Positions 5,280-56,824 of a DNA stretch of 64,000 nt are shown here, in pieces. The stretch lies in the UHGV virus genome UHGV-0277313, one strand, 5' to 3'. Below the pieces are notes generated by a model. The model did not search any database, was not told the DNA's origin, and saw only the letters and a program-made list of their open reading frames with translations. Numbering within the stretch: the stretch's first letter is position 1; each line of letters begins with the position of its first letter. Both the position numbers and the translations under genes were made by a program. The DNA comes from a virus.

Positions 5280-5291
5280 ACCTTAACAAAT

Positions 5292-5327
5292 AAAAGCGGT
5301 ATCATTCATTGGTATCGCTTTTATTTT
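5292..5327 (+). terminator. rho-independent terminator
   Basis: AAAAGCGGTATC-loop-GGTATCGCTTTTATTTT, stem followed by a T-run. Confidence 0.6.
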
Positions 5328-5374
5328 ATCAAACATTCAACAAATTGTCAACATCTAAATGAAAGGAAAAAGAG

Positions 5375-12639: not shown

Positions 12640-13191
12640 ATGAGAAACGTAGAATTGTTGAGCAAGAACAAAGATATGACAAAACAAATCGAAGCTGTCA
12701 ATAAGGCTATCGAAAAGTTTGGTCATAAAGACAATGAAACCGTGCAGATAGATTCTGTTGACAACGTAGCCAAAGATGATGTAGTCTTTATCTATGATTA
12801 CAGTTGTTTAGGAAAGAGCTTTCACGCTTTTATCGAAGCCTTCAAAGTTTTGGTATGGAAGAAAGCAGAGGTTCATTTTGTTGTTGAGAACTTGAATTAT
12901 TGGAACGATGTGCAATTGCAAGGATCCTTGACAGCATTGACATTTGCAGAAGAGTGTGAAAGAAGACTTCGCAGCGCGGTGTCAAAAGAGAACCTTGCAG
13001 AAGCAGCAACAAGAGGAAAGTTTGCAGGCCGTCCTAAAGGTTCAAAGAACAAAGAAAGTCTGATTATCACGAAAGCCGCTGAAATTGAATTTTGGTTGCA
13101 GCAAGGAGAAACCAAAAAATGGATTGCTAAACAGTTGGGTATTTCGGTGGGTACGATATATAACTATATCAAATCCAAAACAGAAGCTTAA
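12640..13191 (+). CDS. serine-recombinase (resolvase/invertase)-like protein lacking the catalytic Ser motif; C-terminal HTH
   Basis: C-terminus GRPKGS...IAKQLGISVGTIYNYIK is a typical resolvase HTH; DDVVFIYDYSCLGKS resembles the resolvase core; no N-terminal RVSTxxQ. Confidence 0.55.
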   Translation: MRNVELLSKNKDMTKQIEAVNKAIEKFGHKDNETVQIDSVDNVAKDDVVFIYDYSCLGKSFHAFIEAFKVLVWKKAEVHFVVENLNYWNDVQLQGSLTALTFAEECERRLRSAVSKENLAEAATRGKFAGRPKGSKNKESLIITKAAEIEFWLQQGETKKWIAKQLGISVGTIYNYIKSKTEA

Positions 13192-13216: not shown

Positions 13217-14245
13217 ATGTACTATGATGGTAAATTAAAAGAGTTGGAACAGAAAATCGAAACTCTGGAAGATAAAGTTTTTGGTATGAATCGCAGCACG
13301 GAGAAGAATGAACAATCCTTTGCTGATCAAATTAAAACACTCAGACAAAAAACACAAAGCTGTTACAGACAGTTTGATGCCGCTCAAAGTGATGCCGAAA
13401 TGGACAAAAGTAAACAAGTTTGGCAATCCGAGATATCTGAATTAGAGACACTGCTTATTAAGGAATATGAGCGTATTAAAGAAGCAGTGAAAAATATTCC
13501 TTTTGGTTACATTGCTGAAAGTGTTGGTATTGATCCTGTGACAGGATATTGCAAGTGTATTTGGAAATGGTCAGCGACTGAACCGACCAAAGATACTGAA
13601 GGTGCTGGCTATGTAGATTTCAATACTAAAGATGTCAGTCGCGATGAATTCAAAAAGATTCGAGGCTTGATGAAAAAATATGGTCTCGATAAATTCTGTC
13701 TTTATGAAATCTCTGGTAAAAAGGAATATCCCTTGTGCTTCAAATGTGGTAAAGATGATTTGGTGACTAAAGAATCTGAAGAATCTAAATCATTAAATGA
13801 AGTTGCAAAGATGTTCAAACACGGTTGGTTGTGTCAAGATGAAGAACGAATCATGTGGGTTCCTAAACGTCCTAAAGGTTTGTCTTTGTGGAATAAACAG
13901 AAAGGCGGTGTGGAATTAAATGTTGAAATTGAGAAAACCAAAAACCCGTGTTACGTCGATTGCAAAACAGGAAAAAAGTTTTCCAGAATTTGGTTGAAAG
14001 ATGTGGAATTCCAAGAGTACGATGATTATCGATGCAGAACATTCACTCTTGACGAACTGGAAGAACATTTTATATGCGCCGGTAATAGCTTTACAGTGAA
14101 AGTAATGAAAGGTAATGAGGTCTTGCGCGATGATGAAACATTGGAACATTTAATCGACGAAATCAATTCCACGTATGAAGACTGGAATGCTATAAAAGGA
14201 AGATTTCCTGAAACGATTTGCTTAATCAAAATGTGGGGAGGCTGA
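13217..14245 (+). CDS. hypothetical protein (N-terminal coiled coil)
   Basis: ATG 13217 after AAAGGAGAAAAGGG; track start 13085 overlaps the upstream gene. Confidence 0.55.
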   Translation: MYYDGKLKELEQKIETLEDKVFGMNRSTEKNEQSFADQIKTLRQKTQSCYRQFDAAQSDAEMDKSKQVWQSEISELETLLIKEYERIKEAVKNIPFGYIAESVGIDPVTGYCKCIWKWSATEPTKDTEGAGYVDFNTKDVSRDEFKKIRGLMKKYGLDKFCLYEISGKKEYPLCFKCGKDDLVTKESEESKSLNEVAKMFKHGWLCQDEERIMWVPKRPKGLSLWNKQKGGVELNVEIEKTKNPCYVDCKTGKKFSRIWLKDVEFQEYDDYRCRTFTLDELEEHFICAGNSFTVKVMKGNEVLRDDETLEHLIDEINSTYEDWNAIKGRFPETICLIKMWGG

Positions 14246-41092: not shown

Positions 41093-41120
41093 AAAAATCT
41101 AATTGATTAAGGACACGCTA

Positions 41121-43391
41121 ATGAAATATCTAATTTTGCTTCGGGGTCTTCCTGGTTCTGGTAAAAGTTATTGGATAAAAGAAAACAAATTAGAAGATTA
41201 TACTATTTCTTCTGATAATGTTCGTTTGTTGTTTGCAACACCGTCTATTCCTTTTCAGGCTTGTTATAAGGATAGAGGAATTTCACAAAAGAATGACAAA
41301 GAGGTTTGGGATTTAATACATTCTTTAGTTGAACGTCGTTTAATGGAAGGCATGACAACTATCGTTGATGCAACACATTTGACTGTTAAGTCTATTAATT
41401 ATTACAAAAGCTTTTGTGCAAGTAATAATGTACGTTGTATCGTATTGGATTTTAATGTTAGCCTGGAAAGTGCTATTAACAATGATTTGTTAAGAAAAGG
41501 CACTTGTCGTTATGTAGGTTGTCAGATCATTAAAATAATGAATGACAAAAAAGAAGATGTGCCTAAATGGGTTGATTATACAACTGATAAAGAGCATGTT
41601 GTCAAGCTGTTTAATGACTGTATAGACGCGGTTGATTACAATGAGAAGTATGATAGCGTTGTAATCTTCGGTGATTTGCATGGTTGTTATGAACCTTTAA
41701 AACAGTGGTTTGACAAACATCCTGTTAACGACAAAACGAAATATATCTTTTGTGGTGATTATGAAGATAGAGGTATTCAACATAAAGAGTTGTTTGATTT
41801 TCTTTTAGAACATCGCAAAGATTTTAATTTCAAATTCTTAAAAGGCAATCATTCTTGTCGTTTGTTACAGATAGCTGAACGTGATAAAGATTCTATTCGT
41901 TATCCGGAATACTATAATACGTTTGAACAAATGAAAGATTTTGATCCTATTGAACTGAAAAAGTTTGTTCGGGATCAAGATGATATGGTTTACTTTACAT
42001 TTCGTAATAAAAACTTTTGTGTATCACATGGTGGTATTAGTTGTCTTCCGACTTTAAAGTTGAATAGTAGTGAATACATAAAAGGTCACGGAACATATCA
42101 AATGTCAAATGATGTGGATAATGATTTTATGTTCAATTCTTCTATTGAAGGTGATAACATTTATCAGGTACATGGTCATCGCAACGTTACAAATAGTGAT
42201 ATTCAAGTATGTGATCGTTGTTTTAATTTGGAAGGAGGAGTTGAGTTCGGTGGTGAATTACGAATTCTTCAGATTGATAGTGAAGGTAAATGTATACTGG
42301 ATTCTATTAGAAATACTGTTTTTAAAGAATTGACGGAAGGTTCGAAGATTGTCAATGAGTTTAAGTATTCTTCATTGATTAGAAAGTCGCAAAACCCAAA
42401 CGGTATTAGTTCTTATAACTTTAATCGAGACGCTTTTTTTGATAAAAAGTGGAATAGCTTGACGTGTACCGCAAGGGGCTTGTTTGTATATGATGATACA
42501 GATAAAGTTGCAGCAAGGTCTTTTAACAAATTCTTTAATTTGAATGAAACTAGTACTTCGAAATTAGATTATATTGTGAAGAATTGGTGTGGCGTCACGA
42601 ATGTTTATAAAAAGGAAAACGGATATTTAGGTATCATTTCTGTTGATGTTCGTGATAACAGTTTCATTTTAGCATCGAAAAGTCGTACTGATAAAGAGTT
42701 CGCAACGAATATTAGTAGAATCTTTAATGAAAAATTGTCAGAAGAACAACAGAACAATTTGAAGAAATGGTTATTGAAGGATGTGGATAAACATCAAGGT
42801 AATGCATATTCTTTAGTTGTTGAAGTAATTGATCCAATTAACGATCCGCATTTTGTTCAATATGATAAAGATGATATTGTTGTTTTGGATGCATTCGTTA
42901 ATGACTTTAATGAAAAAACTGTTTCATATGATGAACTGATTTCATTACATGACTTAACAGGTTTGACAATAAAAGAAAAGATTTGTGAGACGTGTGATCT
43001 AAAGACAACAATTCATGAACTTTGTAATACCAAAGATCATATCGAAGGATTTGTTTTAGAAGGGCATGATTATAATGGCAAGACTGTTCGTGTGAAGATT
43101 AAAACAAAATGGTACTTGATGTGGAAGAAGTTCAGATCAACAGGTGATTTCGATGAACGATTCGACATTAAAGATTTTTTGACAGTTGAACAACAAAAAT
43201 ACGCCAAACAAATCTATAGCCGAACAAAACAATTGATCGATTTACGTAATGGAGATACAGTTAGTACTGATGGTTCAATAAATGTAAATGATGAAATTGA
43301 CAATTATGTTATGTTTATTTATAGAGATTTGATTGGTGATTCGCGGATTAATATACCGAAAATTATACAATCTGTTGAAAATGTGAAATAG
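41121..43391 (+). CDS. polynucleotide kinase / metallophosphatase / ligase-like RNA-repair enzyme (CthPnkp-like)
   Basis: P-loop LLRGLPGSGKSYW; calcineurin-type phosphatase motifs VVIFGDLHGCYEPL, FCGDYEDRG, KGNHS; ligase-like motif I YKKENGY in the C-terminal third. Confidence 0.7.
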   Translation: MKYLILLRGLPGSGKSYWIKENKLEDYTISSDNVRLLFATPSIPFQACYKDRGISQKNDKEVWDLIHSLVERRLMEGMTTIVDATHLTVKSINYYKSFCASNNVRCIVLDFNVSLESAINNDLLRKGTCRYVGCQIIKIMNDKKEDVPKWVDYTTDKEHVVKLFNDCIDAVDYNEKYDSVVIFGDLHGCYEPLKQWFDKHPVNDKTKYIFCGDYEDRGIQHKELFDFLLEHRKDFNFKFLKGNHSCRLLQIAERDKDSIRYPEYYNTFEQMKDFDPIELKKFVRDQDDMVYFTFRNKNFCVSHGGISCLPTLKLNSSEYIKGHGTYQMSNDVDNDFMFNSSIEGDNIYQVHGHRNVTNSDIQVCDRCFNLEGGVEFGGELRILQIDSEGKCILDSIRNTVFKELTEGSKIVNEFKYSSLIRKSQNPNGISSYNFNRDAFFDKKWNSLTCTARGLFVYDDTDKVAARSFNKFFNLNETSTSKLDYIVKNWCGVTNVYKKENGYLGIISVDVRDNSFILASKSRTDKEFATNISRIFNEKLSEEQQNNLKKWLLKDVDKHQGNAYSLVVEVIDPINDPHFVQYDKDDIVVLDAFVNDFNEKTVSYDELISLHDLTGLTIKEKICETCDLKTTIHELCNTKDHIEGFVLEGHDYNGKTVRVKIKTKWYLMWKKFRSTGDFDERFDIKDFLTVEQQKYAKQIYSRTKQLIDLRNGDTVSTDGSINVNDEIDNYVMFIYRDLIGDSRINIPKIIQSVENVK

Positions 43392-47365: not shown

Positions 47366-47845
47366 ATGGTAAAAATGATAAAACCAGAGGACTTAAAACC
47401 AATCGACAATATAATTGCAAGTACATATTGGTCTGATGGAGATATTTTAAAACAAGATTATAGTACCTGTTTTCATTATATTGCAGATAATTCATTTAAA
47501 TATACACGGTGTTCTGATAAAACTGATTTTAATAATCTTGATGAATTCTTTTCAAAAGTTTTGCAAGCAGTTTTGTCAGGTACAAAATTTATTATATCAG
47601 GACAATATCATTTTGGTTACGATTGTTACCTATTCAGAAAAGGGCATCCTTTGAATGAAAATATAGGAAAACACTATTTTATGGCAGCAATCGGATATAA
47701 AAAGATAAATGGATTACTAGAATATTATAGTAATAAAGTTTATCCAAATATAGTAGTTACGCCATATGATGATGGAAGGTTGCCGTATTTCAAAACTTTA
47801 GTGCGGAAAGCTGAATTTGGTGAAACAATTCTAAATAAAATTTAA
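47366..47845 (+). CDS. hypothetical protein, C-terminal-motif family (ends FGETILNKI)
   Basis: ORF. Confidence 0.55.
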   Translation: MVKMIKPEDLKPIDNIIASTYWSDGDILKQDYSTCFHYIADNSFKYTRCSDKTDFNNLDEFFSKVLQAVLSGTKFIISGQYHFGYDCYLFRKGHPLNENIGKHYFMAAIGYKKINGLLEYYSNKVYPNIVVTPYDDGRLPYFKTLVRKAEFGETILNKI

Positions 47846-47903
47846 AATAAAAATGATAAAAAAGAATCATAAATTTATTTTTAACATCACATAAAAAAAG
47901 TTC

Positions 47904-47932
47904 TTGACATTCAGCATTACTTTTGCTAATTT
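47904..47932 (+). promoter_or_regulatory. strong promoter copy A (AAAAAGTTCTTGACAttcagcattacttttgcTAATTT)
   Basis: Near-identical copy at 49461; A-rich UP-like tract, TTGACA, 17-nt spacer. Confidence 0.55.
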
Positions 47933-48236
47933 AGTTTTTGTCAGGTGATGAACTTGACAGCGAGTTTTTAGAAATAGTGAATATGATTTCCGTACTTAAG
48001 GAAAACCTCATCGTGGTTGTACGGTCTAGTATCTGTTTTATCAATGTTTCTTCATTGTGTTCATCTCCAAAATTATCCAAAATAAAACAGTGAAGCTAAT
48101 TTCCTTTCTTCTTCATAAAACAGCCTTGTCGTGGCGAAGAAGCTCTAGTAGTTTACGTTTGTAAACGAAGCTAATGTTTTACTCTTATTTTAAGGCAGCA
48201 GATGCAATTGTTTGCATGCAGTTGCATCTGCATTTA

Positions 48237-48328
48237 GGAAATGTGGATGAGTGGTTTAAATCAGCGGTTTGCTAAACCGTCGGGCATAGAAATATGTCCC
48301 GCAAGTTCGAATCTTGCCGTTTCCGCCA
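48237..48328 (+). tRNA. tRNA-Ser (anticodon GCT), class II
   Basis: Acceptor GGAAATG/CGTTTCC; anticodon loop TTGCTAA; long variable arm CGGGCATAGAAATATGTCCCG; T-arm GCAAGTTCGAATCTTGC; discriminator G then CCA. Confidence 0.8.
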
Positions 48329-48355
48329 AAAGTTTCTGTAGAAGATACAGGTTAC

Positions 48356-48449
48356 GCCTTCGTCGTTCAATGGTTAGGACACTCGGCTTATACCCGAGCG
48401 AGCAGCTGATATCTGCGAAATCACAGTTCGAATCTGTGCGGAGGTACCA
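48356..48449 (+). tRNA. irregular tRNA-like gene (94 nt), identity unresolved
   Basis: Good T-arm CACAGTTCGAATCTGTG and an acceptor with G-U pairs ending ACCA; two candidate anticodon hairpins (CTCGG-CTTATAC-CCGAG and GCAG-CTGATAT-CTGC); does not fold as a canonical cloverleaf. Confidence 0.35.
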
Positions 48450-48481
48450 ATTTTAATTTGCATTTTGAAAGTTGGGTAGAT

Positions 48482-49312
48482 ATGCAATATTTGACAAAGC
48501 CTTTTGTAAAATGGGTCGGTGGTAAAAAACAACTTCTTGAGAAATTAGGATCTTGTATGCCCAAAGATTACAATCGTTATTACGAACCTTTTATTGGTGG
48601 TGGAGCTTTATTGTTTAATGTTCAACCTAAAGATGCTGTCATTAATGATACAAACAGTCAGTTAATAAATGTTTATAATCAATTAAAAACAAACATTGAA
48701 GATGTTATAAAAACGGTGAATACTTTAGATAGTAAAATGTGTAATGAAGATTATTATCTAGAAATTCGTGACCGTTATAATTCAAAAATCAAATCAAAAG
48801 AGTTAGATGCTGAATGTGCTTCTTTAATGATTTGGGTTAACAAACATTGTTTTAACGGGCTATATAGAGTCAATTCAAAAGGGTTGTTTAACGTCCCGTA
48901 TAACAATAAAGTAAATGGCGTTTCAATTGATGAATGTAATTTACGAAACATCAGCAATTATTTAAATTTAAATAAAGTTGATATTCGTGAAGGTGATTTC
49001 GAAGCCGCTTGTTCCGATGTGAAAAAAGGCGATTTGGTATATTTTGATTCGCCGTACGTTCCAGTAAGTAAAACAGCAAACTTTACAAATTATACAAAAG
49101 ATGGTTTTAGTTTAAATGATCACAAACGTTTGGCTAAATTGTTTTGCACTCTGGATAGTTTAGGTGCGTATATTATGTTAAGCAATAACGATGTTCCTTT
49201 GGTTCATGAGTTGTATAGTCAATTTAATGTGACTTCTGTTGATGCCCGTCGTGCTGTCAATAGAGATGCAACAAAAAGGAAAGGTAAGGAAGTAATCGTT
49301 ACCAATTTTTGA
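48482..49312 (+). CDS. dam: DNA adenine methyltransferase (Dam-like, alpha class)
   Basis: KWVGGKKQLL, FxGGG motif YYEPFIGGGALLF, catalytic DSPY; the ORF may extend to TTG 48458. Confidence 0.85.
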   Translation: MQYLTKPFVKWVGGKKQLLEKLGSCMPKDYNRYYEPFIGGGALLFNVQPKDAVINDTNSQLINVYNQLKTNIEDVIKTVNTLDSKMCNEDYYLEIRDRYNSKIKSKELDAECASLMIWVNKHCFNGLYRVNSKGLFNVPYNNKVNGVSIDECNLRNISNYLNLNKVDIREGDFEAACSDVKKGDLVYFDSPYVPVSKTANFTNYTKDGFSLNDHKRLAKLFCTLDSLGAYIMLSNNDVPLVHELYSQFNVTSVDARRAVNRDATKRKGKEVIVTNF

Positions 49313-49325
49313 TTAAACAGATAGT

Positions 49326-49412
49326 GGATGGGTCGCATAGCGGCAATTGCTGGGGACTGTAAATCCCCCGCCTGAAAAGGCTTCGTTGGTTCGAGTCCAA
49401 CCTCATCCACCA
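49326..49412 (+). tRNA. tRNA-Tyr (anticodon GTA), class II
   Basis: Acceptor GGATGGG/CTCATCC (one G-U); D-arm GCATAGCGGCAATTGC; anticodon stem GGGGA/TCCCC with loop CTGTAAA; long variable arm; T-arm GTTGGTTCGAGTCCAAC; ACCA. Confidence 0.75.
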
Positions 49413-49460
49413 AAAATTTTTAAAAAGATGAAAAAAAGTTCTTGACAATTAGCATTACAT

Positions 49461-49489
49461 TTGCTATAAATAATACATCAAGACGAGAT
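49461..49489 (+). promoter_or_regulatory. strong promoter copy B (AAAAAGTTCTTGACAattagcattacatttgcTATAAA)
   Basis: Duplicate of the 47904 promoter; TTGACA N17 TATAAA. Confidence 0.55.
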
Positions 49490-50335
49490 ATTAAACATTG
49501 TAAATAAGAAACAGCCAAATGAAAAGGCCTTTACGTGGCTTGGCTGATAAGTAGCTTTCTTCATTTAGTGAATTTAGTGAAACCAACTTTTTCATTGTTT
49601 AATATCTCATATAACTTGAACTGTATAAAAACAGTACGGCTGTATAGACATAAGATGATTCTGCCTATATAGTTTCCGTCATCAGTCTGATTACCTTTTC
49701 GTGGTTTGACGGATAAGTAGCGACCTTCAACTGTTTATTTTCAAGAGCGAAGCATTGATTATAAACTGTCGCGAAACTAAAGTTCTGACATGTAACAGTT
49801 GATGAAATTTCCGCATCGGTTGTTACAATATGATAATGGTCTTGACGAATTATAACCCCAATTTAACGTACGGTAATGCGGGAAAACATAGTTGTTATAA
49901 TGACTCAAGATCTTTCAAGCTATTTGTTTAGCCGTTTTCAGGAAAGTTTTGGGGTGAAAAACTTCCTTGTTATTATTTGTAAAATATGCCTTGATTTTTA
50001 ATTTTCTATAACTTCTAATAAAGTAGAATAGGAAATTTTAAAAGGTTTTAAAATTAAGTTGGAAGATTTGTGATTTTGTTATACAGAGTGACTGAATCAA
50101 TGGAAGAAAGAGGTCGTTTTGTTTAGATTGCAAACCCAATTTGATTTTAAATAAAAAGAAAATCTGAGTGAAATAAAGGTTTTCTCCTTAGAAATAAGGT
50201 TCTTTTTAGACTTAAGTCTTCTAAATTTATATAAAGTTTATATTTGTTTAGATAACTGAGTTATTTTATCGCAGTTTATTGTTTTAGACTCAAGTTCTAA
50301 ACATTTCAGATCGAATCTGAATGCTGCTTCTAATT

Positions 50336-50400
50336 CAATCCTTTATTCAAGGATTGTTTCCGGTGATTCGCGATAGTCAGTACCGGTACAAAATCTGACA
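50336..50400 (+). ncRNA. two-hairpin structured RNA element, copy 1
   Basis: CAATCCTT-TATT-CAAGGATTG, then TTTCCGGTGA-TTCGCGATAGTCAG-TACCGG...CTGACA; copy 2 at 54415 keeps both stems through compensatory changes. Confidence 0.4.
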
Positions 50401-50718
50401 TCTAGATAAATTGAAATATGTTTATCTGTTAGGTTCCTAAAACCTATCATCAAAATTTAGGCGTCAAGATTGTTTCTTGCAGGTTTCTTGTTCACCTGAC
50501 AAAATGAACAAGCAGTGCAAACGCTGTAGAATCGTTGGCGGGTTTGTCGTTGCCCATATACCGACCAGAAATGATACTTGCTGATATTCTGATAGAAGTT
50601 CCGCTAGACTGATGATCTTCATGTAAAGTGTGTCAAGCTTTACATTATGACATTCTTAATTGAATGCTGTCAAAGGTTTTGTGTATTGTACCTGCGTAGC
50701 AAAACAATACACTTTTAA

Positions 50719-50794
50719 GCCGAAATAGCACAGTTGGTAGTGCAGTTGATTTGTAATCATCAGGTCGTGGGTTCAAATCCCTCTTTCGGCACCA
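50719..50794 (+). tRNA. tRNA-Thr (anticodon TGT)
   Basis: Acceptor GCCGAAA/TTTCGGC; D-arm GCACAGTTGGTAGTGC; anticodon loop TTTGTAA (one stem mismatch); T-loop TTCAAAT; ACCA. Confidence 0.65.
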
Positions 50795-50995
50795 GTTTAT
50801 TTAGGTGTTTTGCAAAGTTTAATCTCATTCGCTCGTTAAACTTTCCTTTCAAAATTCTCATCATCTCCAATTTTGATAAATGCAAAACAGTTCAATTCGT
50901 TTGTTTACCTTCACGTGGTTTTGAATGTAAGTAACTTAAGGTTTTTAACAACTGCCGTAGATCGTTTACTTAAGTGAAACTAAATAACAAACAAT

Positions 50996-51082
50996 GCCCT
51001 TATGATGGAATCGGTAGACATAACAGATTCAGAATCTGTTGGAATTACTTCCGTACCTGTTCGAGTCAGGTTAGGGGCACCA
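50996..51082 (+). tRNA. tRNA-Leu (anticodon CAG), class II
   Basis: Acceptor GCCCTTA/TAGGGGC; anticodon stem ACAGA/TCTGT with loop TTCAGAA; long variable arm; T-arm ACCTGTTCGAGTCAGGT; ACCA. Confidence 0.8.
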
Positions 51083-51085
51083 TTT

Positions 51086-51179
51086 GGGTGGTTGGCAGAG
51101 TCTGGCTTATTGCAACGGTCTTGAAAACCGTCGAACATAGGAATATGTTCCGTGTGTTCAAATCACACACCACCCGCCA
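51086..51179 (+). tRNA. tRNA-Ser (anticodon TGA), class II
   Basis: Acceptor GGGTGGT/ACCACCC; anticodon stem ACGGT/ACCGT with loop CTTGAAA; long variable arm CGAACATAGGAATATGTTCC; T-arm GTGTGTTCAAATCACAC; GCCA. Confidence 0.8.
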
Positions 51180-51185
51180 ATTTAT

Positions 51186-51278
51186 ACCCCGTTGTAGTCA
51201 TGGTGACCATCAATTGAATGCCTATAGCTCCAGTCAATTGGTACGGGAATGCTGTTCGAATCAGTCTACGGGGTGCCA
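51186..51278 (+). tRNA. irregular tRNA-like gene (93 nt), anticodon arm not resolvable
   Basis: Perfect 7-bp acceptor ACCCCGT/ACGGGGT + G + CCA and T-loop GTTCGAATC, but the T-stem is displaced by one nt and there is no canonical anticodon hairpin; contains near-palindrome TCATGGTGACCATCA. Confidence 0.3.
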
Positions 51279-51353
51279 ATTTTTTAAACAAGCCTTTACA
51301 CGCGTCATGATGACGATAGTCCAATATACATTTGAAGGCTTTTTTAAAAATTG

Positions 51354-51443
51354 GAAAATGACTGAGTGGTTATAAGGTGGGTGACTTGGCGAAGTGCCAA
51401 TTAACTTAAAATGTTAAGACGTAGGTTCGAATCCTGCTTTTCC
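51354..51443 (+). tRNA. irregular tRNA-like element (T-arm GTAGGTTCGAATCCTGC, acceptor TGGAAAA/TTTTCCA, no encoded CCA)
   Basis: Canonical T-arm and a 7-bp acceptor, but 22 extra nt between acceptor and the candidate anticodon hairpin TTAAC-TTAAAAT-GTTAA; probably a pseudo-tRNA or non-canonical tRNA. Confidence 0.25.
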
Positions 51444-51470
51444 AATTTTTTCAATTTTCTTGAATTTTAA

Positions 51471-51544
51471 ATAAGCGTAGCACAATGGTAGTGCATCGGT
51501 CTCCAAAACCGAGGATGAGAGTTCAATTCTTTCCGCTTATGCCA
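51471..51544 (+). tRNA. tRNA-Trp (anticodon CCA)
   Basis: Acceptor ATAAGCG/CGCTTAT; D-arm GCACAATGGTAGTGC; anticodon stem TCGGT/ACCGA with loop CTCCAAA; GCCA. Confidence 0.85.
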
Positions 51545-51560
51545 TTTCCTACATTTTTAA

Positions 51561-51637
51561 CGGGGTTTAGCGCAGTCTGGTAGCGCGCCTGCCTTGGGAG
51601 CAGGAGGTCGAGTGTTCGAGTCACTCAATCCCGACCA
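51561..51637 (+). tRNA. tRNA-Pro (anticodon TGG)
   Basis: Acceptor CGGGGTT/AATCCCG; D-arm GCGCAGTCTGGTAGCGC; anticodon stem CCTGC/GCAGG with loop CTTGGGA; T-arm GAGTGTTCGAGTCACTC; ACCA. Confidence 0.85.
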
Positions 51638-51824
51638 TATTAAGAATTCAGGTGAAAGCTAGTGAGTAACCTGTATCGTTTAACCCCACTGTGCGTCAAC
51701 AGGGTTTTGTACAGACAAAAATGAAACTGTATCGGGACGGAAAGTGTCCGATTATGCCGAAATGCCGACGGGCAAATCGTAAAGTTGTGGACCCGGTGGA
51801 CCACATTAAAAACCCACCTACCGT

Positions 51825-51847
51825 TTCCTTTGAAAAAACAAGGATTG
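51825..51847 (+). repeat. TTCCTTTGAAAAACAAGGATTG repeat, copy 1 of 3
   Basis: Other copies at 52149 and 52348; forms hairpin CCTT-TGAAAAACA-AGG. Confidence 0.5.
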
Positions 51848-52148
51848 TAAGATTGGATGATTTAGACTTATGATGAAACAGAATTAGGTTTTATTGATTA
51901 AGCATCAAATAAATCTTTGGTTCGTTCGGGACTTAGTCCGCACATTGAGGGATTAACGTCAGGTTAATGTACTTAGTAAGCCAAAGATGAATTGAAAAAT
52001 TCTGATATAAAACGTATTTTGGTTTTATAAATGTTCTTTTGGTGCTTAATCAATAGAAAATGGAGCATATTGTAATTTCTGAGAATGATATCTAATTAGA
52101 AATGAAAATACCCTAGGGTTCGGTTGAATATGTGATAGAACTCACCAT

Positions 52149-52169
52149 TTCCTTTGAAAAACAAGGATT
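52149..52169 (+). repeat. TTCCTTTGAAAAACAAGGATT repeat, copy 2 of 3
   Basis: Followed by a second CAAGGATTG. Confidence 0.5.
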
Positions 52170-52347
52170 AAGAGCAAGGATTGCCCTGAGATATTATGAA
52201 GGCGTATTATGAGGAAAAGAAACATAATGTGCTTTTATAATAAAATAAGGGTGTGGTTTAATTATATAGGGTAAATTGGTTCTTTTCCAACTCATTTATT
52301 ACTAGGATTAAAATCAGGTAGTGTATCCTGCCTCGTCCTTTTAAAAA

Positions 52348-52369
52348 TTCCTTTGAAAAACAAGGATTG
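52348..52369 (+). repeat. TTCCTTTGAAAAACAAGGATTG repeat, copy 3 of 3
   Basis: Exact motif. Confidence 0.5.
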
Positions 52370-52585
52370 AAGTTTGCATTTGGTGTAACTTTGGTTAAAT
52401 AGTCTTAAGCCTATGCGCAAGGTGTTTTAAGAAACGTTTGACGGGGGGCTATAGCAGATTCTAGAGGCTGTAAATAGTTTGTAGCATACTTAGAGTGGAT
52501 TTTAAGAGGTTATGTGTGAATCATAGGTGCAAAAATAAATTTTTAAATAAAGTAATCATTTAGATGTGATTACACTATTTGTCAG

Positions 52586-52614
52586 GCTGTTCGAGTGTTC
52601 GAGTCACTCAATCA
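52586..52614 (+). pseudogene. tRNA-Pro 3'-half fragment (duplicated T-arm region)
   Basis: GTTCGAGTGTTCGAGTCACTCAATC matches the tRNA-Pro T-arm at 51608-51632 and then diverges (..ATCATGA instead of ..CCCGACCA). Confidence 0.45.
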
Positions 52615-52625
52615 TGACTAACTAT

Positions 52626-52700
52626 TCCGTGATAGCTCAATGGTAGAGCAATCGGCTGTTAACCGATTGGTTGTAGGTTCGAATCCTACTCACGGAGCCA
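52626..52700 (+). tRNA. tRNA-Asn (anticodon GTT)
   Basis: Acceptor TCCGTGA/TCACGGA; D-arm GCTCAATGGTAGAGC; anticodon stem ATCGG/CCGAT with loop CTGTTAA; T-arm GTAGGTTCGAATCCTAC; GCCA. Confidence 0.85.
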
Positions 52701-53114
52701 TTGATATCTTATAAATGTTTTGGTTCGTGTGTGTGGTTCCAATTAATCAAAAAATGCACTGCTTGAGCTTAATCGGGCTGTAATTAAGTAACCTTTGGAA
52801 GACGTGGTTCGACTTCCCCTATAGAGGTGATATCGGTGAATGTCCTCGGCTCTTTCCTTCAAGAGTGGCGTAAATGTAAGTAACGATTACAAAAGGATGA
52901 TGACAATAATTTGTCCGTGAGTGATTCCCAAAAGAAGTACGTTAAGCTTCTAAACTTTAAAACATTTCTTTGAGTGCTAACATGCTCAATGAAACAAGGT
53001 TTTAACAGTTTCCTTGTAAATCTTAAACTGTCATAGTGCTTCATCTTATAAAGGTTTTTTGTTGTAATTCCAAAGATGAAGTTTGTTTTTTAAACTGAAC
53101 TAAGAGGTCTGGAA

Positions 53115-53462
53115 ATGATCGTTAAAAAAATAACAGAACGTACCGTTTATCCGTCGTCATATGAATCTTTATCTTTGCCAGAAAAGAGCGATATTGATTC
53201 ATTTATTAAGCAGTCAATTAAGGTTGCTTATAAGGCAGGAAAAACATTTCGTGTAGGTGATTATGTTGGAAGGAAAGCTTTTCCTGATTGGTCAAATACA
53301 CCTTTGGATCCGATTTATCAATATCATAAAAGAATTGGTACAACTGATCCAACGAAACAGGCAGGTATTGATGTAGGTCATCTGTTTAAAAATGCAATGG
53401 ATGAAAGTCCATTTTGTTTTGAAATTCATAAAGGGCATGTAAATTACTATACGCCTGTTTAA
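53115..53462 (+). CDS. hypothetical protein inside the tRNA island
   Basis: 115-aa ORF after AAGAGGTCTGGAA. Confidence 0.5.
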   Translation: MIVKKITERTVYPSSYESLSLPEKSDIDSFIKQSIKVAYKAGKTFRVGDYVGRKAFPDWSNTPLDPIYQYHKRIGTTDPTKQAGIDVGHLFKNAMDESPFCFEIHKGHVNYYTPV

Positions 53463-53545
53463 ACAGTGTGAGTTTGATGCAACAGCGTTTATTCCTAACG
53501 CAAATTCCATTCTTTTCAGTTCTGTGGTTGCTAAAACTGAATAAT

Positions 53546-53632
53546 GCACTTGTGGTGGAATAGGTAGACACGCAAGCTTGAGGTGCTTGTGAAAGAAATT
53601 TCGTGCTTGTTCGAGTCAAGTCAGGTGCACCA
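53546..53632 (+). tRNA. tRNA-Leu (anticodon GAG), class II
   Basis: Acceptor GCACTTG/CAGGTGC (one G-U); anticodon stem CAAGC/GCTTG with loop TTGAGGT; long variable arm; T-arm CTTGTTCGAGTCAAG; ACCA. Confidence 0.75.
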
Positions 53633-53676
53633 GTTTAGCAACACGAGAGACCAGCTTCCTTGTTTCTTGTTTGTTG

Positions 53677-53714
53677 CCAGCCAATCGACGAAGGCTGTAG
53701 TTACAGATTTCTGG
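53677..53714 (+). repeat. CCAGCCAAT..CGAAGGCTG..GTTACA element, copy 1 (about 45 nt downstream of tRNA-Leu)
   Basis: Copy 2 at 54843 sits about 40 nt downstream of tRNA-Arg; the CGAAGGCT core recurs inverted at 55012. Confidence 0.45.
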
Positions 53715-54379
53715 TTTTCGGTGAAATCGAAAAGTCAAATAACAATCAGTTTATTTGGCTGGTTGTTTCATAATAGGTTGCGGGTGATGAACCGATCCTT
53801 TCTATAAAAAGTAAGGGTGGGCTAATAAAATGCTTCCTTGATTGGAAGTTAAGCAAATCGATGGTTATCATCTTCAATCCCGCAATCGCGATTGTAATTT
53901 TATCGTCCCACCTTTATTTTACAAGTTTCTTGGTTTTGCTAAGCTTATTTAAAGGGCTTAGAGACCTTTTATCGCGGATTAGTGAAATGGTATCTTAAAA
54001 CTTCACACAAACCAGAGAAAAATAATGCAAGGTGAATAAAATTTTTCTTGCTTTTAGATTCTGGTTATGTTACTTTGATTAAGTTGATGGCGGATATGAG
54101 ATATTAAAGCTGTGCCATATATTTCTGGTAATGTCCGTTATTGATACCAGTCTTTGGTGGTTATCAGATATGCCCCAATATGAGTAAGGCTATTGATTGG
54201 TTACTTTGATTGGCATTTGAAAATACCGTAAGTTGTTCGGCAATGTGTGCGACAGTAACTGAGTTTAACCACATCAGGAGAGATGAGCTTGCTCATCGAT
54301 ATAGTCCCTGATACTGGAAAAGCCGATTTCATTGGTTTTCATTGAAATTGGTAACTATCACATTAGGCTCTTACCTTAA

Positions 54380-54408
54380 AATTACCAGTTCGAGTCTGGT
54401 GTCCGCCC
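54380..54408 (+). pseudogene. tRNA 3' fragment (T-arm ACCAGTTCGAGTCTGGT + acceptor GTCCGCC + C + CCA) without a matching adjacent 5' half
   Basis: Canonical T-arm and CCA; the only complementary 5' acceptor (GGCGGAT) lies about 300 nt upstream at 54087. Confidence 0.35.
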
Positions 54409-54414
54409 CCAATT

Positions 54415-54482
54415 CAATTCCTTACATGGAATTGTTTCTGGTAAGTTCGCGCGATAGTCAGTACCAGAACCTAAACCTGACA
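54415..54482 (+). ncRNA. two-hairpin structured RNA element, copy 2
   Basis: CAATTCC-TTACAT-GGAATTG, then TTTCTGGTAAG-TTCGCGCGATAGTCAG-TACCAG...CTGACA; covaries with copy 1. Confidence 0.4.
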
Positions 54483-54726
54483 AAGTCTTAGCATTGACTT
54501 TAAACTGCTTAACCTTATGCATAGAGATAGGATAAATGCTTCAGACTTTAAGCTGTCATCTTAAAGGGCTTTGCAAATTTACCGTAAATTGCCAGAAAAG
54601 AAGAGGCTGTGATAGTGTCTAGAATTCTTCCGATTGTGAGTTCGATAATCTCATAGATTTGACCGTCCATCACTTTTAAAGTGGCTCTCTTAGCTGGTTC
54701 TGAGTGGTCATAAAACCAGCTTTAAT

Positions 54727-54803
54727 GATTCCATAGCTCAACTGGATAGAGCCACAGACTTCTAATCTGTAGGTTGCAAGTTCAAGTCTTGCTGGGATCG
54801 CCA
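54727..54803 (+). tRNA. tRNA-Arg (anticodon TCT)
   Basis: Acceptor GATTCCA/TGGGATC; D-arm GCTCAACTGGATAGAGC; anticodon stem ACAGA/TCTGT with loop CTTCTAA; T-arm GCAAGTTCAAGTCTTGC; GCCA. Confidence 0.85.
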
Positions 54804-54842
54804 AAGTTTCTTTTTGTGATGATCTTACCTTTCGGGTCATCA

Positions 54843-54882
54843 CCAGCCAATAAGCGAAGGCTGATGTTACAACTTTCTCAAG
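54843..54882 (+). repeat. CCAGCCAAT..CGAAGGCTG..GTTACA element, copy 2
   Basis: See copy 1 at 53677. Confidence 0.45.
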
Positions 54883-55111
54883 TGTGAAAGTGCAGAGCTT
54901 GTTCGTGGATAAGGTTATTGCTTATTCCATACTATGTATGACAGGTTTTCCTTTGCTCCTTTAAAAATCGATCAATGAAGGTGTCAGCAGAATGCTTGTA
55001 TGTACTACAAGTTAAGCCTTCGTAAAAAGGAAGAAACATTGCTTTAGCATGCCTGTCATAGCGATGGTAATTTTGCCATCCCTTCATTGATCGTGAATAT
55101 TATTTTCGGGA

Positions 55112-55185
55112 TCGACTAAAGGTAGGTCAACACACTTTGACTGTGTTAATGTTGGTTCAAATCCAGCTCCCGAAACCAATTTTTA
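55112..55185 (+). tRNA. tRNA-Gln (anticodon TTG)
   Basis: Acceptor TTCGGGA/TCCCGAA; anticodon stem ACACA/TGTGT with loop CTTTGAC; T-arm GTTGGTTCAAATCCAGC; ACCA. Confidence 0.75.
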
Positions 55186-55531
55186 ATTATTCCTTGATTT
55201 GTAGTCAGTTTGATTAAAGATCGAGGAATTTTTAATTTGTGGAGAAATAAAATGAGAAAAAAGAAAATAGTAAAGAAACGTGACTTGATAGCAAAAGATT
55301 TAATGACAAATAAATATCGACAACGGATAGTTCCAAATAAGAAAAAGAAATTAAAGAAGTTTGATTGGAAAAAACAAAAAGGCGATAACAGAATCATTGA
55401 TATGGTTGATGATTCTGTTATCGCCTTTTTTATTTATTTGAATCCACGTTTTAAAAATGTGTTGAATGCTTTTTGTTTTTCTTTTTTATTCTTAATAAAA
55501 TAAAGAACTGAAATCTGTTTGATGGATAAGT

Positions 55532-56824
55532 CTAATCTTCACCATTGGCATAAACAAAAAAGAAGCCAGGCTGTATTTGTGTAGTAGTATATGTTGCCGT
55601 TGAGTCTATACCTAAAATCATAACATCACCTTTTAAAACCGGCAACAAAACACAAATTTCAGCGTTATTACCGTTTGCTTTGCTTATTGATTTTGTATGT
55701 TTACTTCTCACTTCAAAAACAATCCATGATCCTTCTTTTGAACATATAAAATCACCAGTAAACATTCCGTTCGCAGGTGCAAGATAACGTGTACCATTTG
55801 TTCCTAAAGTCAATTGAATATATTTTCCTGAAGGCATTGCCATGCCAGATATATCTGAACGTGTATATGTATTAATTGGTGGTGTTATAGAAGGTTCAAA
55901 AGAAGTAATGTTAAATGCACTATTTGTTGAAATATCATTAGCTATAATAATTTCTCTTGATTTGCCATAAACACCAGCGCCATTGCTTCTAAATGTTTCA
56001 TTTGTTTTTGGTTTGTACCAAACGGAATCATCTGAAACTGGTTGATTATTTTGTATAAAATATTTTCCAGTTCGAATCAGAATACCTTGATCGTTTATTG
56101 ACAATGGTTGTCTATCTGGATCTTTGATTTGGTATGAATAACTGGTTAATGAAACCTTATCAAATGTTTTTGTTATTGATTTATATGTCCCATCTTCATT
56201 CAGACCGTCAGCGAATTGATATTTTACACCAGGTAACGCAAATGCAGTTGAACCGATATATCCAAATCCGTTAAAGATTTGATCAACAGAAACTATATTA
56301 TTACCTGTTGTGGCGCTGTTTGTGCAAATACAAATTGGGAGACTCATAGTAACTGATAACGAACCGTCGTTATATGATTCCATTTTATTTGTTGTTAAAT
56401 TGTAAAAAGCTCCAGTATAATTGTCAGGTACTGTTTTACCGGAATTATTGTTTCCTCTTCTGAATAAACCATTACCATTAGATGAAACAAAAAGAGGAAG
56501 TGTTAATGCGGTGGAAGTTGGCTCTGTATATGTTAAATCTTTTGTTAATATAATAATGTCAAATTTTCTTGTGATACCATCAGTTTCAAATCCATTAGGA
56601 ATATAAACTTTAGTTCCAGCTTTGATTGTTATAACACCATTATTTAGTTCCGCTTTAACAGTTTGCGGAATTTCAAGAATTCGATTGGTTGTATAATTGA
56701 TTACGTTAGTTTTTAATTTATTATCAACGTTATCATTAGTTGAATAATCACCAACATTTTGTTTATTTTGTAATGTTTGTGGCAATTGATTTACTGTTGT
56801 TTGTTTAACTGTATAGCTTGACAT
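55532..56824 (-). CDS. putative tail fibre / receptor-binding protein (minus strand)
   Basis: 430 aa, rich in S/T/N/G and predicted beta-strand segments; no enzymatic motif; structural role inferred from composition only. Confidence 0.4.
   Translation of the reverse strand: MSSYTVKQTTVNQLPQTLQNKQNVGDYSTNDNVDNKLKTNVINYTTNRILEIPQTVKAELNNGVITIKAGTKVYIPNGFETDGITRKFDIIILTKDLTYTEPTSTALTLPLFVSSNGNGLFRRGNNNSGKTVPDNYTGAFYNLTTNKMESYNDGSLSVTMSLPICICTNSATTGNNIVSVDQIFNGFGYIGSTAFALPGVKYQFADGLNEDGTYKSITKTFDKVSLTSYSYQIKDPDRQPLSINDQGILIRTGKYFIQNNQPVSDDSVWYKPKTNETFRSNGAGVYGKSREIIIANDISTNSAFNITSFEPSITPPINTYTRSDISGMAMPSGKYIQLTLGTNGTRYLAPANGMFTGDFICSKEGSWIVFEVRSKHTKSISKANGNNAEICVLLPVLKGDVMILGIDSTATYTTTQIQPGFFFVYANGED

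Follow-up and report, generated by a model that had tools for sequence, protein, structure and literature searches.

The tRNA region and the two copies

The window, meaning the whole stretch of 64,000 nucleotides analysed here, comes from an uncultivated giant phage of ~300 kb that probably infects a gut Clostridia bacterium. It carries a tRNA gene cluster in which all tRNAs (13/13) lie on the + strand. Sharing this orientation are sigma-70-like promoters with A-tracts at 47893 and 49431. A terminator-like hairpin at 49940-49968, kept in the related phage L012, lies upstream of the first of two similar elements in the cluster, so read-through from the 49431 promoter is uncertain. The features of the two loci are as follows:

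50260..50335, + strand: decayed tRNA-like sequence with an anticodon-arm-like TTAGACTCAAGTTCTAA, a T-arm-like TTCAGATCGAATCTGAA and a degenerate acceptor 3' strand
50336-50400, + strand: copy 1
50336..50356, + strand: hairpin 1 of copy 1, CAATCCTT-TATTC-AAGGATTG
50360..50386, + strand: stem-2 domain of copy 1, a 6-bp stem CCGGTG/TACCGG and a 15-nt conserved loop ATTCGCGATAGTCAG
50387..50400, + strand: A-rich linker TACAAAAT and tail CTGACA (50395-50400) of copy 1
50401..50718, + strand: remainder of a non-coding block, a series of hairpins and long-range helices; its last hairpin, GTGTATTGT...ACAATACAC, stands directly before tRNA-Thr (50719-50794)
53973..53994, + strand: 5' fragment of a split tRNA-Met(CAU) gene, acceptor strand to D-loop
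54356..54411, + strand: 3' two-thirds of the split tRNA-Met, comprising the D-stem 3' strand, anticodon arm, T-arm, acceptor 3' strand and encoded CCA
54415-54482, + strand: copy 2
54415..54434, + strand: hairpin 1 of copy 2, CAATTCC-TTACAT-GGAATTG
54438..54467, + strand: stem-2 domain of copy 2, CTGGTA/TACCAG with loop AGTTCGCGCGATAGTCAG
54468..54482, + strand: linker AACCTAAAC and tail CTGACA (54477-54482) of copy 2

The sequences and positions given for both copies in the initial annotation were re-read exactly. By blastn, the only significant match to copy 1 in the rest of the window is copy 2, with 50298-50400 aligning to 54377-54482 at 71% identity over 108 nt (E = 5.7e-11). This similarity begins ~38 nt upstream of the start first proposed, within the tRNA T-arm, and terminates exactly at CTGACA. 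There are indeed two structured copies, as had been claimed, but the unit that was duplicated is a tRNA plus its trailer rather than a free-standing element of 65 nt.

The sequence upstream of each copy bears this out. Copy 2 had been described as adjoining a tRNA 3' fragment, and a partial Rfam tRNA match (54341-54400, 21.8 bits) with its CCA ending at 54411 agrees; hairpin 1 of copy 2 starts 3 nt past this CCA. In the close relative L030, an intact tRNA-Met(CAU) (12825-12752, minus strand) precedes copy 2. The fragment at 53973-53994 is identical to the 5' part of this tRNA, and 54356-54411 is 99% identical to L030, although the anticodon in the window now reads CTT, not CAT. The sequence preceding copy 1 (50260-50335) aligns with the tRNA part before copy 2 and is thus a paralogue of tRNA-Met. 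Its identity to the corresponding orthologous sequence in the phages L012 and L044 is no more than 50-58%, which indicates that it is decaying, and neither ARAGORN nor Rfam calls a tRNA there.

Covarying stems and a conserved loop

We compared four versions of the element, namely the two window copies and the orthologues of L012 and L044, which represent two other phage lineages. The initial annotation held that both stems differ between the window copies yet stay paired, and this is what we find, with further variants contributed by the orthologues. Hairpin 1 reads CAATCCTT/AAGGATTG in copy 1, CAATTCC/GGAATTG in copy 2, CAATATTGTC/GATGATATTG in L012 and CAATGTTGTC/GACAATGTTG in L044: four distinct sequences, paired in 4/4, with four pairs changed on both sides. 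The helix is retained even though identity among the orthologues is only 52-75% (52% for window against L012), and the G-U wobbles in the orthologues are compatible with an RNA of the + strand only. Stem 2 likewise pairs as CCGGTG/TACCGG in copy 1 and CTGGTA/TACCAG in copy 2, its second pair being C-G in copy 1, U-A in copy 2 and A-U in both L012 and L044. Within the loop, which has an extra CG in copy 2 and contains the palindromes TCGCGA and TCGCGCGA, a 12-nt stretch (CGCGATAGTCAG) is unchanged in all four versions.

Across these four versions, pairing holds in 97.6% of cells against 89% in shuffled alignments (0/500 shuffles as high), and the covariation score is 0.405 against 0.201 (0/500), albeit with low covariation power because there are only three independent lineages plus one paralogue. 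When the partners are slid by 1-3 columns, pairing falls to 24-49%. Minimum-free-energy folding gives the two stems in 3/4 versions, and z-scores of the versions run from -2.2 to -3.5; in L012, the minimum-free-energy structure keeps hairpin 1 and replaces stem 2 with an alternative helix that uses the tail. Pairing and covariation above 500/500 shuffles support the proposal that compensatory changes maintain the stems of a structured RNA. Since several substitutions produce G-U pairs, which are tolerated only on the + strand, the RNA would be read from the same strand as the tRNAs.

The same substitutions bear on whether the element is instead a site in DNA, such as a target of recombination or homing, or an operator bound by a protein, that mediates the shuffling of tRNA cassettes and whose inverted repeats would be kept because a protein or cruciform requires them. 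Insertions and duplications with flanking direct repeats make the region a mosaic: the tRNA-Pro 3' end is present twice (51608-51635 and 52591-52618), as is a 36-nt repeat (53677-53712 and 54843-54878), each an insertion with duplicated ends, and a ~364-nt segment occupies different sites among the phages. These insertions and the palindromes in the loop would suit such a site. However, an inverted repeat in DNA should stay Watson-Crick on both strands, and many of the changes seen here give G-T on the + strand, i.e., C-A on the - strand. No ORF for a recombinase, integrase, or homing endonuclease was found in 49.4-55.2 kb, and the mapped insertion boundaries coincide with neither copy. We regard a DNA-level site as very unlikely.

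The tail, described at first as conserved, is CTGACA in both window copies; in the orthologues it is CTGGCA (L012) and CTGGCG (L044). It can pair with GTCAG of the loop, making an H-type pseudoknot (GUCAG/CUGAC) plausible. The predicted pseudoknot helix is 100% paired in the four versions, its sole change being U-A to U-G; no double change, and hence no covariation supporting this helix, was found among them. Alternatively, the tail and linker can pair with 50665-50681 (TGTCAAAGGTTTTG) in a long-range closing helix, which is predicted by both the single-sequence fold and the consensus fold and shows three one-sided, G-U-compatible changes. This helix is possible at the copy-1 locus only, where it is predicted to compete with the pseudoknot.

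A different role for the tail would arise if each copy were a terminator-promoter junction, with hairpin 1 and the following GTTTC ending the tRNA transcript, CTGACA serving as the -35 hexamer of a promoter that drives the genes further along, and the copies resembling each other because they share DNA and RNA signals. A simple scan lists 54415-54434 as terminator-like, promoter-like CTGACA-16-TATGTT (50395-50422) and CTGACA-18-TAAACT (54477-54506) each show 9/12 matches, and the linker that precedes the tail resembles an UP element in being A-rich. Against this, only three U follow hairpin 1, which has an AT-rich stem, and the scan does not list copy 1 as terminator-like; promoter-like sites are no commoner than in shuffled sequence (28 against 24.7 expected), and the tail departs from TTGACA in L012 and L044 while its RNA pairing is kept through G-U. 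The CGCGATAGTCAG loop, the covarying stem 2, and the + strand signal over the next 320 nt would also go unexplained. We consider such a junction unlikely.

The arrangement of variable, covarying stems around invariant unpaired nucleotides, with a possible pseudoknot and an A-rich third loop, also brings to mind a catalytic or ligand-binding RNA, i.e., a small self-cleaving ribozyme or aptamer whose target is the tRNA precursor and which might, for instance, sever the trailer; a position 3 nt after the tRNA CCA end would be a useful cut site. The initial annotation placed the motif in no recognized family, and the search against Rfam 15 agrees: no family, ribozyme and riboswitch models included, matched the element or the block that continues from copy 1 at any threshold (E up to 10 with lax filters). 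The pseudoknot lacks covariation, the sequences are too few to define a conserved core, and host RNases suffice for processing tRNAs that encode CCA. An RNA of this kind strikes us as highly improbable.

The non-coding block at the copy-1 locus

The two-stem unit first described was correct in itself, but at this locus a ~385-nt non-coding block (50336-50718) extends up to tRNA-Thr, and copy 1 makes up only its 5' domain. Among the window, L012, and L044, three roughly equidistant lineages, 50357-50718 has ~92% pairwise identity, compared with 77-83% DNA identity for the neighboring Dam gene and ~81% for tRNA-Thr (hand count from the alignment), though part of this could reflect recent inter-phage recombination rather than selection, since non-coding parts of the tRNA region are generally better conserved than protein genes (e.g., 52348-52950, 96% against L043). 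In L043, a T-A pair of the block's last hairpin is replaced by C-G, which is a compensatory change. That phage is without the element and most of the block, which suggests that the element is dispensable or replaceable.

Fold z-scores for the block are -4.6 (+ strand) and -4.1 (- strand). The consensus fold reaches -96.7 kcal/mol with a covariation term of -3.5 on the + strand, as against -74.5 kcal/mol with a term of +3.0 on the - strand. When structures were predicted from the window sequence alone, 20 substitutions kept pairing and 12 broke it on the + strand, compared with 6 and 20, respectively, on the - strand. This pattern favors a predicted RNA structure on the + strand, most of the support over the long block consisting of one-sided G-U changes.

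We also examined a 52-aa ORF on the minus strand (50622-50464), which could represent a protein-coding or toxin-antitoxin locus expressed from a strong promoter at 50673-50644, with the element as its 3' UTR or terminator. Both the window and L012 keep the ORF intact, and in front of it stands TTGACA-18-CATAAT (11/12 matches) with an upstream TG. In L044, however, its ATG is ACG and no ORF of comparable length is present; 4/6 substitutions relative to L012 change an amino acid, and conservation is equally high outside the ORF. It is the only sizeable ORF in the block, the structural substitutions favor the + strand, and on the minus strand the element is not followed by a U-run. The ORF is not conserved, and we hold a coding explanation of the locus to be extremely improbable.

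Conservation also speaks to whether the element is a non-functional relic of a duplicated tRNA-Met plus flank, its structure inherited and unselected. In favor of a relic, decay is visible in the tRNA part of copy 1, the window has a disrupted tRNA ahead of copy 2 as well, the region is a mosaic, and L043 lacks the element. Nevertheless, hairpin 1 pairs in 4/4 versions, with its four double-changed pairs, at an identity as low as 52%; the loop and tail are identical between the two window paralogues, whereas the tRNA sequence beside each and the flanks further downstream are divergent or unrelated; and the orthologous block is more conserved than either the tRNA relic or the protein genes. A relic seems quite unlikely to us.

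A candidate module of the tRNA precursor and its known parallels

The explanation we favor, to which we give about an even chance, is that the polycistronic tRNA precursor of the phage, read from the + strand, contains the element as a structured spacer or trailer module, which is probably part of a stable by-product ncRNA. The trailer would have originated at the 3' end of a tRNA-Met(CAU) gene, and tRNA-Met plus trailer would then have been duplicated, most likely through the tRNA-mediated recombination that shuffles the whole region. Each copy would comprise a sequence-variable hairpin followed by a 6-bp stem closing an almost invariant loop of 15-18 nt, on which the A-rich linker and CUGAC tail may dock to form a pseudoknot of the H type. 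The tRNA of the copy-1 locus would have decayed and the module been retained as the 5' domain of an ornate ~385-nt RNA that ends where RNase P would cut tRNA-Thr. We infer that maturation of the flanking tRNAs frees the spacer as a discrete RNA, its transcript ends, processing, and stability being deduced from sequence. The 5' hairpin and stem-2 domain could define and protect the 5' end, e.g., against a 5'-to-3' exonuclease of a Firmicute host, and nucleate the fold, and the invariant loop would be a surface for tertiary contacts or protein binding.

Several known systems resemble parts of this arrangement. Like intrinsic (Rho-independent) terminators, hairpin 1 is a plain stem-loop with T residues after it, and copy 2 passes a lax scan; unlike them, it has an AT-rich stem with three T only (GTTTC), copy 1 is missed by the scan, and the stem-2 domain and tail have no counterpart. 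The H-type aptamers preQ1-I, SAM-II, and guanidine-III share the short stem, the loop pairing with a 3' tail (putative here), and a size of 40-45 nt, and the A-rich third loop of the element could, like theirs, lie in the stem 1 minor groove. In contrast to these, the element matches no Rfam model, its loop 1 is much longer (10-13 nt), and no regulated gene lies downstream.

Large structured RNAs, GOLLD and ROOL, are encoded by phages or prophages, often within tRNA islands or beside them; they are highly structured, with pseudoknots, and their function is unresolved in the literature (PMC12286853). Many GOLLD RNAs exceed 800 nt, one lies downstream of a Met-tRNA, and tRNAs can occupy the GOLLD linker (PMC12286853). 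Our block is similar in setting only: it lies in a phage tRNA island, follows a tRNA-Met paralogue, and would fold into multiple helices. It differs in matching neither Rfam model, in its length of ~385 nt (ROOL is ~580 nt), in its helices and conserved nucleotides, and in its narrow distribution, being known so far from one phage group of metagenomic origin.

Small stable RNAs are also co-transcribed among the tRNA genes of phage T4, where species 1 and species 2 (120-140 nt) are freed by the tRNA-processing machinery. In E. coli, 3'ETS-leuZ, the trailer of the glyW-cysT-leuZ tRNA operon, pairs with Hfq-dependent sRNAs, sponging RyhB and RybB, and ends in the operon terminator. That RNA has its own function after processing. 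Our candidate module has no known partner and sits inside the operon, in a phage that probably infects a Firmicute. The T4 species resemble the block in setting only, as RNAs encoded among phage tRNA genes, and a likeness of sequence or structure is not expected. With 3'ETS-leuZ, the element would share its location immediately 3' of a tRNA within a polycistronic precursor.

A covarying module in two copies

The initial annotation described a two-copy structured RNA element of about 65 nt with stems maintained by compensatory changes, and both copies read exactly as it gave them at its coordinates. When copy 1 was compared with the rest of the window, copy 2 was the sole significant match. The two-copy element is real, but its repeat unit is longer than had been annotated, starting ~38 nt further upstream: 50298-50400 matches 54377-54482 at 71% identity over 108 nt (E 5.7e-11), with the repeat beginning inside a tRNA T-arm and ending exactly at the tail CTGACA, beyond which the downstream flanks are unrelated. 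The main features are the following:

48458-49312, D12-class Dam methylase gene, among the tRNA genes of the island
50336-50400, copy 1 of the module
50336-50718, block of ~385 nt with copy 1 at its 5' end
54415-54482, copy 2 of the module

Together with orthologues from two related metagenomic phage loci, L012 and L044, four versions of the module can be compared. Hairpin 1 pairs CAATCCTT with AAGGATTG in copy 1, CAATTCC with GGAATTG in copy 2, CAATATTGTC with GATGATATTG in L012 and CAATGTTGTC with GACAATGTTG in L044, with both-sided changes at four pairs. Stem 2 keeps six pairs in every version (columns 28-33 and 52-57, 100% paired), its second pair being C-G, U-A or A-U and its loop-proximal pair G-U or A-U. 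Over the whole module 97.6% of cells are paired, against 89% in shuffles (0/500) and 24-49% when the partners are slid. Both stems covary in the four versions, which supports the earlier claim of a structured RNA, and a neutral relic of duplication is a distinctly unlikely explanation, being contradicted by the compensatory turnover of hairpin 1. The constraint acts on the + strand structure: hairpin 1 contains two G-U pairs in each of L012 and L044, where the opposite strand would have C-A mismatches. A site recognized at the DNA level is very unlikely, as this strand-specific G-T pattern contradicts it.

Predicted folds contain hairpin 1 in four of the four versions and stem 2 in three, the minimum-energy fold of L012 having an alternative helix that involves the tail instead of stem 2; fold z-scores of the module run from -2.2 to -3.5. 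The stem-2 loop CGCGATAGTCAG is invariant, with one extra CG in copy 2. Its GUCAG can pair with CUGAC of the tail (100% paired in the four versions, the sole change being U-A to U-G), and the resulting H-type pseudoknot would be sterically reasonable, with zero nucleotides between the helices, an A-rich third loop of 8-9 nt and the covarying stem 2 of the element as its stem 1. We put this pseudoknot forward as a hypothesis only, because its variation is limited to that U-A to U-G change and because the tail of copy 1 has a competing predicted partner, 50665-50681, with which it would close a long-range helix.

The element could also be a junction between a terminator and a promoter. An intrinsic terminator calls for a G+C-rich hairpin followed by at least five U, and hairpin 1 has two to three G-C pairs followed by GUUUC. 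A lax scan (5 T in an 8-nt window), which copy 2 alone passes, suggests such a junction, but this reading leaves the invariant loop and the covarying stem 2 unexplained, and the orthologue tails drift away from TTGACA; we consider it unlikely.

Hairpins resembling parts of the module occur elsewhere in the tRNA region. A hairpin of the form TCCTTT-loop-CAAGGATT is found four times, at 50339, 51826, 52150 and 52349, all on the + strand, with none expected by chance; the one at 50339 is hairpin 1 of copy 1, and the other three lie within a segment missing from L012. At 54125-54150, within the ~364-nt insertion that splits tRNA-Met (see below), the stem-loop TTTC-CTGGTAAT...TACCAG (14.1 bits, E 0.04 with the stem-2 model) shares its stem and 5' flank with stem 2 of copy 2 and has a different loop. 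The stem-loop CAGGTGAAAGCTAGTGAGTAACCTG (51649-51673), 11 nt after tRNA-Pro, is similar to the stem-2 domain (GGT...AGTNAGTA.CC) and has a compensatory A-U to G-C change in L043, a further related locus (13036-13060), the affected pair corresponding to the covarying one of the element. It was not counted as a third copy of the stem-2 domain, scoring 8.3 bits (E 1.8) by a model built without it. The ~200 nt beyond it (51640-51850) are strongly conserved relative to L043 and contain many hairpins. The occurrence of TAGTCAGT in the tRNA-Gln trailer (55202) was likewise set aside as a further paralogue, being compatible with chance.

The tRNA island and the tRNA-Met trailer

The 13 tRNA genes of the tRNA island (48.2-55.2 kb), which has an M16 peptidase gene upstream, share the + strand and each encode their CCA, and the stretches between them contain no ORF above ~130 codons. 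Copy 2 stands in the position of a trailer, 3 nt downstream of the CCA of tRNA-Met and on the same strand. In L030, a contig of the window's own lineage (99% identical over copy 2), a complete tRNA-Met(CAU) (12752-12825) ends 3 nt before hairpin 1. Copy 1 stands directly after a paralogous tRNA relic: the sequence upstream of it can be aligned to tRNA-Met over anticodon arm, T-arm and acceptor strand and is degenerate, more so in L012 and L044. Because copy 2 is a tRNA-Met trailer and the copy-1 upstream sequence aligns with tRNA-Met, the copies are, judged by alignment, paralogous "tRNA-Met plus trailer" units. The module occupies a tRNA-operon position, originated as a tRNA trailer and has persisted at copy 1 after the tRNA was lost.

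The window's own tRNA-Met gene (53973-54411) is split in the D-loop by a ~364-nt non-coding insertion (53995-54358) and has its anticodon mutated to CTT, and for both reasons we read it as a pseudogene. A permuted or two-piece tmRNA, or a tRNA bearing a group I intron, at 54089-54411 was considered and rejected: ARAGORN and Rfam found nothing, and comparison with L030 and L043 gives an insertion into the tRNA-Met D-loop instead. The insertion has a 4-nt TATC microhomology at both junctions and resembles a tRNA D-arm at its 3' end. L043 contains this segment at another site (13800-14182, approximately window 52940; 90% identical), and Rfam detected in it no intron and no other family. Either it is a small module that moves or recombines, or it arose when tRNA-like sequences underwent ectopic recombination.

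Other segments of the island have also been rearranged. A 36-nt direct repeat (53677-53712 and 54843-54878, 81% identical; ~55 nt judged against L012) brackets the 1.1-kb segment with the split tRNA-Met, copy 2 and tRNA-Arg, and L012 has a single copy of the repeat without that segment. A ~950-nt non-coding segment (51637-52589), also missing from L012, has on either side a 28-nt copy of the tRNA-Pro 3' end (51608-51635 and 52591-52618; direct repeats, 93% identical), as is typical where DNA inserts into tRNA genes or such genes recombine with each other; neither an integrase nor a sizeable ORF was found inside it. L012 further lacks 51183-51556, which includes tRNA-Trp, and 49970-50270, upstream of copy 1. 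The latter stretch matches intergenic sequence and the 3' ends of SSO2105_N-family genes, which are multicopy in related phages, at several sites in L031 and L036 (82% over 83 nt; 64-69% over 125-175 nt), and it seems to be what is left of a gene that was deleted. The tRNA-Phe called by ARAGORN at 51378-51445 (68 nt) has the unusual anticodon AAA and reaches only 20 bits in Rfam against a threshold of 29, which would fit a pseudogene or an aberrant tRNA.

A 36-nt repeat (47893-47928 and 49431-49466, 92% identical) consists of an A-tract, TTGACA, a 17-nt spacer and TATAAA or TAATTT, and its two copies are probable + strand promoters, ahead of tRNA-Ser and after tRNA-Tyr, respectively. A hairpin at 49940-49968 (GGAAAGTTTT...AAAACTTCC, then T-rich sequence), kept in L012, may be a terminator between the promoter at 49431 and copy 1. 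Such promoter-like sequences, together with strand arguments, suggest that the element may be co-transcribed with the tRNA and set free by processing as a stable RNA.

All relatives come from metagenomes, and as their contigs span 297-314 kb this is a giant phage. Its host is likely a Firmicute, since Clostridia supply the closest cellular homologues of Dam. A gene (41103-43391) lying a few kb upstream of the tRNA island, and kept in L043, encodes a 762-aa protein in which an AAA_33 kinase is combined with a calcineurin-like phosphoesterase and an RNA ligase of the T4 Rnl1 type, a make-up that suggests a single-chain enzyme for tRNA repair (Pnkp plus Rnl1). At 3951-6550 the phage also carries two genes with functions of restriction or anti-restriction type, one for an EcoRI-type adenine methyltransferase and, after it, one for a protein with GmrSD-N and HNH endonuclease domains.

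The block downstream of copy 1

The block lies between the tRNA relic and tRNA-Thr. From the 3' arm of hairpin 1 to tRNA-Thr (50357-50718), the window, L012 and L044 are roughly equidistant at ~92% pairwise identity, compared with 50-58% for the upstream tRNA relic, 77-83% for the Dam gene and ~81% for tRNA-Thr (a hand count from the alignment). We would like to note that recent recombination may inflate this apparent conservation, because the non-coding modules of the tRNA region are generally unusually well conserved and mosaic between phages (96% over 52348-52950 against L043).

The block folds well on both strands, with z-scores of -4.6 (+) and -4.1 (-). On the + strand the consensus fold reaches -96.7 kcal/mol and its covariation term is favourable; on the - strand it reaches -74.5 and the term is unfavourable. 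When the structure is predicted on the window sequence by itself, 20 pairs are kept and 12 broken on the + strand by the substitutions of the other two lineages, against 6 kept and 20 broken on the - strand. L043 keeps the final hairpin before tRNA-Thr, in which T-A is replaced by C-G, a compensatory change. Since substitutions and consensus fold both discriminate between the strands, we conclude that the + strand carries what is, by prediction, a structured RNA of ~385 nt. From established tRNA processing, its 3' end would be the RNase P site of tRNA-Thr.

A 52-aa minus-strand ORF within the block was weighed as a gene or type I toxin and discarded: its start codon is gone in L044, four of its six substitutions relative to L012 are non-synonymous, and conservation is as high outside the ORF. 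On these grounds, the block is non-coding. It also contains a near-consensus sigma-70-type promoter on the minus strand (50644-50673; TTGACA, 18-nt spacer, TG, CATAAT; 11/12), directed away from tRNA-Thr, and the ORF it would drive is not conserved; an antisense transcript over the block and the element may start there.

Distribution and relation to known RNAs

Searches of GenBank phages by megablast and blastn with 49800-55200, 50280-50725 and 53700-54730 returned nothing but tRNA-Asn. Exact-pattern scans of IMG/VR with CGCGATAGTCAGTACC and TGCCCATATACCGACC, and of JGI/ENA metagenomes and GTDB genomes with TTCGCG-N0-2-ATAGTCAGTACCNG, gave chance matches and one relative species only (L005 = L012 = L026 = L028 = L047 = L050), and AAGCTAGTGAGTAACC in IMG/VR gave chance matches only. 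Protein-anchored IMG/VR searches (Dam methylase, M16 peptidase, a 430-aa protein and the 52-aa pseudo-ORF) led to the same contig or to unrelated contexts. The additional lineages L030, L043 and L044 came from a large protein database; L044 is a separate lineage carrying the element, and L043 is syntenic and lacks it. The L012 group (L005, L012, L026, L028, L029, L032-L035, L047 and L050) is near-identical at the locus. The element was not found in the more distant clade L052 and L053 or in the paralogue loci L031, L036 and L037, and a covariance model of it retrieved no further copy from ~480 kb of related loci; the comparative evidence comprises three lineages and one paralogue only.

The motif, which the initial annotation did not recognise, has no family match in Rfam 15 either. 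A gathering-threshold scan of the window returned tRNAs only; with E up to 10 over 47800-55600, 54280-54500 and 50300-50730 nothing matched the element, and matches within the block were at chance level (<=16.8 bits). The families covered include GOLLD, ROOL, riboswitches, small ribozymes, tmRNA, RNase P, 6S, group I and II introns and T-box. A ribozyme or aptamer is highly improbable, having neither positive support nor an Rfam match. An IS605/TnpB omega-RNA was also rejected: the TnpB-family matches in L030, L031 and L053 lie elsewhere in those loci, outside any tRNA region.

Phage tRNA islands repeatedly hold conserved structured RNAs of unknown function, such as the T4 stable RNAs, GOLLD and ROOL. 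At the block, tRNA maturation would release a spacer RNA, whose 5'-terminal hairpin and compact stem-2 domain would define and protect its 5' end and nucleate folding, with the invariant loop making a tertiary or protein contact. It is conceivable, though we hold it doubtful, that the block with its 5' domain module represents an undescribed class of trans-acting tRNA-island phage RNA, a smaller counterpart of ROOL and GOLLD released by tRNA-processing enzymes; its loop and pseudoknot would be a binding or catalytic site, e.g., for a translation- or tRNA-related host factor, and the 5'-domain paralogue would be kept behind tRNA-Met since it is functional alone. If expressed and stable, the RNA would give access, in a small system, to the role of tRNA-island RNAs and to the influence of spacer structure on the processing of phage tRNA precursors; should it serve only as a spacer for processing or stability, its interest is modest and local. 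It would be a compact and tractable addition to these RNAs, from giant gut phages whose genomes also carry a gene for a tRNA-repair enzyme; its evolutionary origin, as a tRNA-Met trailer, is clear, and its modular domain of 65 nt survives alone.

In setting, the closest analogues of the block RNA are the T4 species 1 and 2 RNAs, GOLLD and ROOL. GOLLD and ROOL are phage RNAs near tRNA islands, one GOLLD lying downstream of a Met-tRNA (PMC12286853). The block RNA is like them in its setting, a phage or prophage location in or beside a tRNA island. In size and form, a GOLLD- or ROOL-like RNA would be expected to exceed 500 nt, to have an ornate, extensively covarying secondary structure and to assemble as a homo-oligomer; the block has 117 predicted pairs in ~385 nt, of which only 5 are changed on both sides among three sequences. 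By the Rfam scans, the block RNA is a member of neither GOLLD nor ROOL. We regard it as a new candidate member, narrow in distribution, of a general kind that is already known: structured RNAs encoded in phage tRNA islands.
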